From: Escherichia coli
Lineage (GTDB): Bacteria; Pseudomonadota; Gammaproteobacteria; Enterobacterales; Enterobacteriaceae
Length of the DNA stretch: 10,032 nucleotides
Assembly: GCF_036507355.1 (NCBI RefSeq)
Contig: NZ_AP027880.1
Reading direction: 5' to 3' (one strand)
The stretch's first letter is position 1. Each line of letters begins with the position of its first letter. Below, piece after piece: positions 8,706 to 10,032 of this stretch. The notes under the pieces are model-generated. The model was given only the letters and a program-made list of their open reading frames with translations, ran no database searches and was not told the DNA's origin. The position numbers and the translations under genes were made by a program.

Positions 8706-8791
8706 TTCTATGGAAGGAAGCATACAGCGCATGCACACGCGCTGTCACCATTTGCATAGAATGGTGCATCACGACCAAAGTGAGTAGCACC

Positions 8792-8906
8792 GATGACGCA
8801 AAACAAATGGCTCAATGAGCGGCTGGCATATATTCGTGGCCTCAAAGCTCCGAATGACCATCTGCTGACCTTAACAGTTGCAGGTGTTGCAGTTCAGATT
8901 TGAATC
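8792..8906 (+). CDS. Short ORF (38 aa), diverged paralog of the N-terminus of the 1708 ORF; possibly a remnant
   Basis: MTQNKWLNERLAYIRGLKAPNDHLLTL… versus MTQDKWLAERLAYLRGLKAPSDQQRLLL…; nucleotide differences are mostly synonymous third positions. Divergent from mobA across oriT. Confidence 0.35.
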
Positions 8907-9009
8907 CACCAAGATAGTCGTTGTCGAGCTTTGGGGCTTTGGGGCTTTGGTGGTAAAGCATTTTCTAAAGGCTCACAAACCACGGTTATCCAATTCACTG
9001 AGATACAAC

Positions 9010-10032
9010 ATGAAGTTTCGAGTCTTTTGCTTGGCAGCACTCCCCTGCTTTTCGGTTTCAGCGCAGTCTTTAGAAAATTTAGGGTCCTTGACGGCCGACC
9101 AACAGGGAGCCAGCTCTGCCACTGCCGTGAGCGCGGACGGCAGCACGGTCGTGGGGGAGGCTGCTTACGATCTCACGGCAGGCGGGACGGGCAGGCATGC
9201 ATTTCGCTGGACCAGTGCGGGCGGCATGCAGGACTTGGGCGACTTGACGGCCAACCAACAGGGATACAGCTCTGCCACTGCCGTGAGCGCGGACGGCAGC
9301 ACGGTCGTGGGGGGGGCTGCTTACGATCGCACGGCAGGCGGGACGGGCAGGCATGCATTTCGCTGGACCAGTGCGGGCGGCATGCAGGACTTGGGCGACT
9401 TGACGGCCAACCAACAGGGATACAGCTCTGCCACTGCCGTGAGCGCGGACGGCAGCACGGTCGTGGGGGGGGCTGATTACGATCGCACGGCAGGCGGGAC
9501 GGGCAGGCATGCATTTCGCTGGACCAGTGCGGGCGGCATGCAGGACTTGGGCGACTTGACGGCCGACCAACAGGGAGCCAGCTCTGCCTATGCCGTGAGC
9601 GCGGACGGCAGCACGGTCGTGGGGGGGGCTAATTACGATCGCACGGCAGGCGGGACGGACTATCATGCATTTCGCTGGACCAGTGCGGGCGGCATGCAGG
9701 ACTTGGGCGACTTGACGGCCAACCAACAGGGATACAGCCATGCCACTGCCGTGAGCGCGGACGGCAGCACGGTCGTGGGGTGGGCTAATTACGATCTCAC
9801 GGCAGGCGGGACGGGCAGGCATGCATTTCGCTGGACCAGTGCGGGCGGCATGCAGGACTTGGGCGACTTGACGGCCGACCAACAGGGAGCCAGCTCTGCC
9901 TATGCCGTGAGCGCGGACGGCAGCACGGTCGTGGGGTGGGCTAATTACGATCGCACGGCAGGCGGGACGGACTATCATGCATTTCGCTGGACCAGTGCGG
10001 GCGGCATGCAGGACTTGGGCGACTTGACGGCC
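9010..10032 (+). CDS. HAF-repeat autotransporter, N-terminal part: Sec signal peptide plus six 52-aa HAF repeats. The 3' end runs off the window and is probably continuous with 1..1245.
   Basis: ATG at 9010 in frame 1. MKFRVFCLAALPCFSVSAQS is a typical signal peptide (A-Q-S cleavage motif). From 9097 six 156-bp units each encode …SATAVSADGSTVVG…YD.TAGGTGRHAFRWTSAGGMQDLGDLTA. The open frame reaches the last base of the window, exactly at a unit boundary. Confidence 0.85.
   Translation, partial: MKFRVFCLAALPCFSVSAQSLENLGSLTADQQGASSATAVSADGSTVVGEAAYDLTAGGTGRHAFRWTSAGGMQDLGDLTANQQGYSSATAVSADGSTVVGGAAYDRTAGGTGRHAFRWTSAGGMQDLGDLTANQQGYSSATAVSADGSTVVGGADYDRTAGGTGRHAFRWTSAGGMQDLGDLTADQQGASSAYAVSADGSTVVGGANYDRTAGGTDYHAFRWTSAGGMQDLGDLTANQQGYSHATAVSADGSTVVGWANYDLTAGGTGRHAFRWTSAGGMQDLGDLTADQQGASSAYAVSADGSTVVGWANYDRTAGGTDYHAFRWTSAGGMQDLGDLTA
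9097..10032 (+). repeat. Tandem array of six 156-bp coding repeats (units start at 9097, 9253, 9409, 9565, 9721, 9877), over 95% identical
   Basis: Direct inspection; period 156 bp (52 codons). The array ends exactly at base 10032 and resumes at base 1. Confidence 0.95.

Follow-up and report, generated by a model that had tools for sequence, protein, structure and literature searches.

Within a single gene carried by a small Escherichia coli plasmid, stretches of low, high, and intermediate GC content follow one another, which raises the question of whether the gene was put together from two sources. According to the original prediction it was, with an autotransporter scaffold coming from a lower-GC source and a GC-rich block of HAF repeats having a separate history. 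The window (i.e., the whole stretch of DNA analysed) is a complete circular plasmid of 10,032 bp with a mean GC content of 63.0%. A near-identical plasmid record is E. coli p2017.17.01CC_2 (NZ_AP027824.1; human faeces, Viet Nam; 99.6–100% identity), and AP027811.1 is a noisier sister record with 96% identity to the window plasmid. The backbone (1708–8635) has a GC content of 65.2%, in agreement with the 60–68% estimated earlier by eye, and carries the following genes:

2447–3442, minus strand: RepA_C
3729–4379, minus strand: ParA
4558–5310, minus strand: resolvase
6117–6986, plus strand: Rep3 initiator
7079–8599, minus strand: MobA/MobL relaxase

The mobA gene is 93% identical to the pMNBL076/IncQ-like type, and megablast matches to MOBQ plasmids start at position 1708. 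The backbone is that of a small, GC-rich (65%), mobilizable plasmid.

The gene in question (referred to as the cargo gene) wraps around the window ends (9010..10032 + 1..1245) in frame: exactly 341 codons lie between the ATG at 9010 and base 10032, and the single stop codon at 1243–1245 closes a 755-aa protein. From the N-terminus, this protein has a putative signal peptide, eight HAF units (seven near-identical ones of 52 aa and a degenerate one), a linker, and a PF03797 barrel. The gene and its upstream flank divide as follows:

8636..8862, plus strand: oriT-proximal patch of a Comamonas-type MOBQ module, identified by homology (traD promoter and ca. 70 nt of traD)
8863..9009, plus strand: cargo upstream region (5′UTR, possibly promoter), 44.9% GC
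9010..9081, plus strand: putative Sec-type signal peptide (MKFRVFCLAALPCFSVSA/QS) and short spacer, aa 1–24, 43.1% GC
9082..10032, plus strand: HAF units 1–6 of 156 nt (52 aa) each, plus the initial 15 nt of unit 7
1..141, plus strand: remaining 141 nt of HAF unit 7, with the frame continuous across the junction
142..273, plus strand: degenerate eighth HAF unit, aa 389–432, ca. 60% identical to units 1–7
247..1245, plus strand: linker, autotransporter beta-domain (together the C-part, aa 424–755; PF03797 at 472–1164), and stop

Among 5.8 billion protein clusters, five close relatives of the barrel were found, i.e., the same plasmid (P0001), P0002 (90% identity, on a metagenome contig of 1.4 kb), P0003 (66% identity, on a Mob_Pre-bearing 7.5-kb contig of 47% GC), and two chromosomal relatives of 56–58% identity in 57%-GC contexts, one of them from Comamonas avium. 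The relatives' small contigs have 47–53% GC. Signal peptide, HAF units, linker, and barrel are present in all five; P0002 and P0003 have two units each, and the Comamonas chromosomal genes have 7–9 diverged units once frameshifted upstream ORFs are joined. The plasmid-borne gene itself was present in 2 of 72,556 plasmid records and in one of 5,426 complete E. coli genomes.

Sliding-window GC and codon-usage analysis revealed a significant difference between the cargo gene and the backbone. By exact count, the HAF repeats (9097–10032) are GC-rich at 66.8% (about 60–68% had been estimated), and the barrel region (240–1245) is lower in GC, as stated previously, but at 53.6%, with the earlier figure of about 50% holding for 800–1400 only. 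The GC content at third codon positions (GC3) is 0.78–0.89 in the five backbone genes, 0.76 in HAF units 1–7, and 0.57 in the linker and barrel. For the C-part, this amounts to 190/332 codons (0.57) vs. 1321/1597 (0.83) in the backbone (Fisher p = 5e-22), and simulation of the C-part under backbone codon usage yielded 63.0% GC (sd 0.7) and a GC3 of 0.82, vs. the observed 53.8% and 0.57. Since GC3 differs between the regions, the heterogeneity is real and is not an effect of amino acid composition alone.

Amino acid composition does contribute. The units and the C-part differ at codon positions 1/2 (0.62/0.62 vs. 0.58/0.46) and at position 3 (0.76 vs. 0.57), and the gap of 13 points between 66.8% and 53.8% divides about evenly between positions 1+2 and position 3. 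An abundance of Gly, Ala, Thr, and Arg raises the GC content of the unit at positions 1+2; in the barrel, it is Lys, Asn, Ser, and Tyr that abound. When the amino acid sequence of the units was combined with barrel codon usage, 59–63% GC was predicted vs. 53.8% for the barrel, indicating that amino acid composition explains about half of the unit GC excess. With C-part codon usage, the residues of the signal peptide account for its GC content (expected 47%, z = –1.3); with backbone usage, they do not (58% expected, z = –5.3).

The stretch that had been flagged as low in GC (8760–9096, at an estimated 42–47%) is indeed the lowest of the plasmid, with an exact value of 47.2%. Among all circular windows of 337 nt, it ranks in the bottom 0.3% (binomial z = –6.0), the minimum being a window with 45.7% GC that starts at 8745. 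It had been described as the promoter and signal-peptide region of the cargo gene, and the signal-peptide segment does lie within it, but its first 103 nt (8760–8862) consist of the promoter and 5′ remnant of traD, which thus supplies the first third of the interval. This remnant forms part of the 8636–8862 patch (54.6% GC overall and 48.6% for 8793–8862), of which 8636–8860 shares 95% identity with the oriT-traD region of Comamonas aquatica p2_SCLZS63. The patch is only ca. 74% identical to the pMNBL076/Paracoccus type, i.e., the type matching mobA, so that a Comamonas-type patch stands beside a pMNBL076-type mobA and the backbone type changes at oriT. This first traD starts with the ATG at 8793, loses homology to all traD genes at ca. 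8862, and ends as an ORF at the stop codon at 8901–8903; the opening 70 nt of traD in the Comamonas plasmid have the same GC content of 48.6%.

In the region between this remnant and the cargo gene, a triple CTTTGGGG-like direct repeat occupies 8929–8953, and homology to the P0002 contig begins at 8985, where that contig ends. The upstream regions of the homologues are AT-rich as well (31–45% GC). A scan of 8600–9100 for sigma-70 consensus promoters yielded none on the plus strand upstream of the cargo ATG; the sole site in this region lies on the minus strand and is probably that of mobA. A cargo promoter is therefore an assumption, and it is possible that the cargo gene is transcribed by read-through from the traD promoter.

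On the other side of the cargo gene, the following features lead back to the backbone:

1306..1332, no strand assigned: hairpin resembling a bidirectional intrinsic terminator (A6-GGCGC-TCAAA-GCGCC-T6), 61 nt past the cargo stop
1384..1711, plus strand: remnant toxin-antitoxin pair, from gene calls on an identical contig (L007)
1384–1527, plus strand: antitoxin-like ORF of the pair, 47 aa, from the gene call on the same contig
1511–1711, plus strand: 3′-truncated RelE/ParE-family toxin ORF of the pair, with a weak ParE_toxin match
1708..1947, plus strand: right junction, i.e., the start of a second traD of the pMNBL076/Paracoccus type, from alignment

The hairpin did not appear in a consensus terminator scan of 1200–1750, and is supported by its folding (–21.8 kcal/mol, z = –3.2). 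The RefSeq annotation underlying the match at 1511–1711 reads "type II toxin-antitoxin system RelE family toxin". GC content is 54.1% from 1246 to 1707, and the GC-rich backbone resumes at 1708, where the second traD, which carries an internal deletion, is joined in a fusion to the 3′ end of the backbone ORF downstream of it. The foreign segment thus extends from 8863 to 1707 (2,877 bp) and has 58.3% GC, or 53.1% without HAF units 1–7. It has the junctions of an acquired cargo, in that traD is broken at ca. 8862 and restarts at 1708, whereas the Comamonas, Paracoccus, and pMNBL076 plasmids have an uninterrupted traD of 435 nt. Other cargo horizontally acquired by small MOBQ plasmids is comparable, as here the cargo GC3 is off that of the backbone, truncated backbone genes flank it, and its accessory genes are decayed; what differs is that the segment lies between two different, heterologous traD 5′ ends, with no transposase, integrase, or inverted repeats seen at the junctions. 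Together with the type switch at oriT, these two traD ends suggest that two related MOBQ plasmids recombined.

These data support the view that the whole cargo is foreign to the GC-rich backbone and stems from a lower-GC lineage. As such, the proposed lower-GC origin of the autotransporter scaffold stands (C-part GC3 of 0.57 vs. 0.83), although it applies to the entire cargo and not to the scaffold alone. The Comamonas-type traD patch adjoining the cargo points to the same source as the Comamonas homologues with their ca. 57% GC, from which we infer a probable Comamonadaceae-like donor on the basis of few and distant (56–58% identical) chromosomal homologues.

If the whole cargo came from one lineage, the GC-rich repeat block still needs to be accounted for. 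One explanation is a chimeric gene, in which a lower-GC autotransporter scaffold received its HAF block from a high-GC donor by domain shuffling. Codon usage in the unit is compatible with such an origin, its GC3 of 0.77 differing from that of the barrel (Fisher p = 0.009) but not from the 0.83 of the backbone (p = 0.27), and its codon likelihood being equal under backbone and barrel usage (logL –63.9 vs. –64.6). Synonymous divergence, however, is the same on both sides of the supposed joint. Relative to P0002, pS amounts to 0.252 for HAF unit 1 (a value from only 42 identical-residue codons) and to 0.252 for the barrel, with third-position differences at identical residues of 0.167 and 0.166, respectively. 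Relative to P0003, third-position divergence is likewise uniform, at 0.56 in the unit and 0.50 in the barrel. The discordant divergence that would mark shuffled domains is thus absent from the comparisons with P0002 and P0003, and an exchange, if there was one, must be older than the last ancestor shared by the genes in the window, P0002, and P0003. A chimera that arose since the split between the window and P0003 genes is largely refuted.

The combination of domains is not unusual either. In an exhaustive search with the barrel only, in which HAF units were scored with our own HMM and hmmsearch, the 60 nearest barrel representatives included 50 full-length proteins, of which 47 had HAF units (typically 7–8); overall, such units were present in 95/116 barrel representatives. 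HAF passengers are thus the rule for this barrel subfamily, and the architecture of HAF units plus autotransporter domain is widespread, with at least 95 representative clusters at 50% identity. Moreover, a search of HAF proteins retrieved none outside the autotransporter family that were more than 60% identical to the units, vs. 81% for the P0002 and P0003 units, leaving no candidate GC-rich donor.

The GC pattern itself is shared by the relatives with two units. Signal, unit, and C-part have 39%, 68%, and 51% GC in P0002, and 32%, 67%, and 54% in P0003, the latter carrying its GC-rich unit on a contig of 47% GC. In more distant members, the repeats again exceed the barrel (62.7% vs. 55.2% in L013; 61.1% vs. 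58.3% in L011), signal peptides have 39–51% GC, and upstream regions 33–45%. The GC pattern is thus older than the amplification of the units and does not depend on the backbone. Amelioration of the repeats towards the backbone was rejected, as relatives on low-GC contigs have a unit that is just as GC-rich. Taken together, we consider a chimeric gene very unlikely, and the separate history proposed for the repeat block finds no support: the block differs from the rest of the gene in its mode of evolution (i.e., tandem amplification), not in its source.

Tandem amplification is evident from the array itself, in which TRF detected a period of 156 with 94% matches. HAF units 1–7 have 65–69% GC and a GC3 of 0.75–0.77, and are 91–99% identical to one another at the DNA level, vs. 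80–85% to the P0002 unit. In addition, a sister plasmid (L001) has one unit more than the window (9 vs. 8). Given that the units resemble one another more than they do the P0002 unit and that the sister plasmid has an extra one, the tandem amplification of one 156-bp unit to seven copies is recent. The degenerate eighth unit (58% GC, GC3 of 0.59) has its orthologue in the second of the two units of P0002 and P0003, and we infer that the array expanded from two units rather than being an older array that became homogenised. When the array is collapsed to two units, the GC content of the gene falls from 60.0% to 55.5%.

The protein that has been remodelled in this way contains eight stretches matching TIGR02913 (HAF_rpt; E = 1.1e-49, 166 bits vs. 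a cut-off of 22.65) and a PF03797 match at aa 499–729 (E = 1.3e-14, 55 bits vs. a gathering score of 26). It ends with an aromatic beta-signal (VQVGYSARF), the terminal F of which is invariant in 5/5 family members. A putative Sec-type signal peptide was recognised by inspection only, from the charged MKFR, the hydrophobic core, and VSA/QS, and is conserved in P0002. For the barrel, the closest and sole matching solved chain is that of EstA of Pseudomonas aeruginosa (PDB 3kvn; E = 4e-6), and an AF2 model of the C-part, built from an alignment of five sequences only, reached a pLDDT of 38.8, which is too low for the model to be of use. EstA and the cargo protein share a passenger, a linker, and a C-terminal PF03797 domain ending in an aromatic residue, preceded in the cargo protein by the putative signal peptide, and in neither is the passenger a beta-helix, EstA being the textbook case. 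However, the EstA passenger is a GDSL esterase, whereas the plasmid-borne gene encodes a HAF array with a predicted beta-propeller fold, and a domain scan of the cargo protein detected no catalytic domain. The eight TIGR02913 matches also liken the cargo protein to the HAF extracellular proteins (TIGR02913/IPR014262), although most of those listed have PEP-CTERM or no anchor. Unlike the diverged units of the chromosomal relatives, 7/8 units here have almost the same DNA sequence.

The AF2 model of the passenger (121 sequences) had a pLDDT of 77.4 and a pTM of 0.79, and displayed regular groups of four strands. In a Foldseek search, its best matches (E down to 1e-7, TM 0.5–0.56) were the propeller domains of S9 peptidases, TolB, and CylK, and a weak Pfam PD40 match was found in the passenger as well. 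The passenger is therefore predicted, with moderate confidence, to be a beta-propeller of four-stranded blades, the number of which is uncertain because one unit (residues 65–98) is unmodelled. By its predicted features, the cargo protein is a classical type Va autotransporter that would export a HAF propeller and present it at the cell surface. An attachment function and likely adhesin role have been suggested for a HAF autotransporter protein of Agrobacterium tomkonis (PMC8685578), and by analogy the passenger most likely serves as a binding or adhesion module.

Recently amplified propellers with near-identical blades have been documented (Pereira & Lupas 2022, PMC9218822; Afanasieva et al. 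2019, PMC6805158), and the HAF array resembles them in having blades that are >90% identical in DNA within one gene, in a blade number that varies between close relatives, and in the independent arrays of these relatives. The survey of Pereira & Lupas (PMC9218822) makes no mention of HAF, PD40, or autotransporters.

Amino acid variation between the blades has hot spots. Positive selection between the units was considered and rejected: a lack of independence between the pairs inflates the pooled pN/pS (4.45), and a rough hand estimate counts 2 synonymous changes among 14 codon changes (p ~ 0.3) or 20 nucleotide changes (p ~ 0.1), neither of which is a significant departure from neutrality. That the plasmid gene is rebuilding an eight-bladed HAF propeller from a truncated two-bladed ancestor, by amplification of a single blade and adaptive diversification of an adhesin, is a tentative and rather doubtful idea; if it were true, the amino acid changes, many of them multi-nucleotide and clustered at about ten surface hot spots, would reflect the rapid adaptive diversification of a new adhesin.

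Copying of the unit leaves part of its GC content to be explained. In full units, GC3 exceeds the value expected from amino acid composition with barrel codon usage (0.73–0.77 vs. 0.54–0.57; z = 2.3–3.6), with Fisher p-values of 0.009 for the window, 0.004 for P0002, and 0.17 (i.e., not significant) for P0003. Being copies, the seven units in effect provide a single sample of 52 codons for this excess. The Comamonas chromosomal genes reverse its sign (repeat GC3 of 0.61–0.65, below the 0.68–0.70 of the barrel), which makes the excess specific to the plasmid-borne clade. It could stem from chance retention, from GC-biased conversion in a recombining array, or from an exchange that preceded the clade.

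If chance and pseudo-replication were the whole story, one 52-codon unit that happened to be rich in GC3 would have been copied, without any signal beyond amino acid composition. The effective sample of one unit, for which z is about 3, and the p-value of 0.17 in P0003 fit this account, but the excess has been kept in three lineages whose third positions are 17–56% diverged, over which a random excess should have decayed; of the readings weighed here, we regard it as the least probable. Alternatively, GC-biased repair in recombining HAF units might have enriched them, on top of their capture and copying. In line with this, the excess resides in the full units (GC3 of 0.71–0.77) and not in the degenerate terminal unit (0.59–0.66) or the barrel (0.51–0.60), copy number differs between near-identical plasmids, and the third-position differences in unit 1 between the window and P0002 favour GC in the window by 5 to 2. 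However, these counts are tiny, P0002 and P0003 show the excess with a single full unit that lacks a conversion partner, and the long, diverged arrays of the Comamonas chromosomes are without it. Enrichment by recombination is improbable, though less so than a chimeric gene.

The reading that we favour, at a probability of roughly 75%, is that a single lower-GC surface-protein gene was captured by a GC-rich plasmid and had one of its units recently copied sevenfold, with no need for a gene from two sources. A 2.9-kb lower-GC segment (8863..1707), comprising the intact type Va autotransporter gene together with a terminator and the remains of a toxin-antitoxin pair, would have been inserted in traD, the gene belonging to a family of Comamonas-like bacteria in which HAF passenger and barrel have probably always travelled together. 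Three causes would then combine into the observed mosaic. Firstly, the upstream region and signal peptide are AT-rich in every homologue, and part of the low-GC interval is the AT-richer 5′ end of a Comamonas-type traD. Secondly, residue content lifts the GC of the HAF unit at positions 1+2, in comparison with a barrel rich in Lys, Asn, Ser, and Tyr. Thirdly, a 156-bp unit that presumably had ca. 68% GC already in the two-unit ancestor was recently amplified to seven copies, the tandem copying spreading a 156-bp GC spike into a 1.1-kb block.

The outcome is an ordinary one, as plasmid cargo, HAF autotransporters, and recently amplified propellers are all known kinds. It illustrates that a GC mosaic within one gene need not mean a chimera: an amplified unit with biased amino acid content can mimic a foreign block, and GC-based calls of transfer or domain shuffling should therefore be checked by per-domain synonymous divergence. 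The plasmid further provides a rare plasmid-borne HAF-propeller autotransporter and a clean natural case of recent blade amplification, which is of modest value for understanding the evolution of repeat proteins and adhesins.

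Nearly identical plasmids were found to differ in the number of HAF units encoded by the autotransporter gene. Compared with the array of the window, the sister plasmid NZ_AP027824.1, whose RefSeq annotation calls an autotransporter CDS of only 423 aa, carries one additional 156-nt unit, and the sister record AP027811.1, the assembly of which is noisy, apparently contains about three more.

Within the array itself (9082..10032 + 1..141), nearly all differences among the seven near-identical units change the encoded amino acid. Specifically, 12 of the 14 distinct codon changes in units 1–7 are non-synonymous, and five of these 12 involve multiple nucleotides (e.g., AGG>TAT and TAC>GCC). 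The codon changes cluster at unit positions 2, 6, 10, 12, 14, 26, 28, 31, 37, and 38. The pN/pS ratio was 4.45 when pooled among the units (a value inflated by the counting of non-independent pairs), versus 0.16 for the barrel when the window was compared with the 90%-identical metagenomic gene P0002; as a rough hand estimate, the non-synonymous excess among the units carries no statistical significance. Some of the variant residues (i.e., W26, Y38, and N6) are also present in P0003, the 66%-identical homologue. Such a pattern suggests hot spots at the surface or else that alleles have exchanged sequence.

The two chromosomal homologues of Comamonas type (L003, 9333–11527, and L005, 9039–11239) each have a frameshift within the HAF array that splits the autotransporter gene into an upstream ORF with the signal peptide and four to five HAF units, and a called gene containing the remainder. 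This frameshift reflects either an assembly error, pseudogenisation, or phase variation. The 7.5-kb contig bearing P0003 (L004), which is interrupted by a run of Ns at about 2301–2600, ends in another HAF-unit-like sequence (7402–7505; about 70% identical to the units of the window), from which it may hold a second HAF gene.

Repeats were located both upstream of the cargo gene and downstream of repA:

8929–8953: triple direct repeat (GCTTTGGG GCTTTGGG GCTTTGGTGG), 57–81 nt upstream of the cargo ATG
2176–2284 and 2018–2066: direct repeats with 57-nt and 23–24-nt periods and the GGGGGGTCCGATTTAAC motif, on the 3′ side of repA

The repeats downstream of repA resemble iterons, and near them GC content drops locally to 49% (2101–2300). 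The GC maximum of the plasmid (73–77%) lies around 6000–6300, and a stretch of ~70 nt at or just upstream of the start of the Rep3 gene (6254–6322) is absent from NZ_AP027824.1.

Finally, sequence comparison assigned the two traD 5′ ends to different types:

8793–8862: traD 5′ end of the Comamonas p2 type
1708–1947: traD 5′ end of the pMNBL076/Paracoccus type

A single plasmid harbors two heterologous traD 5′ ends, with neither of the two copies being intact, and the type of the backbone switches at oriT (about 8636–8708). This implies that two related MOBQ plasmids recombined.
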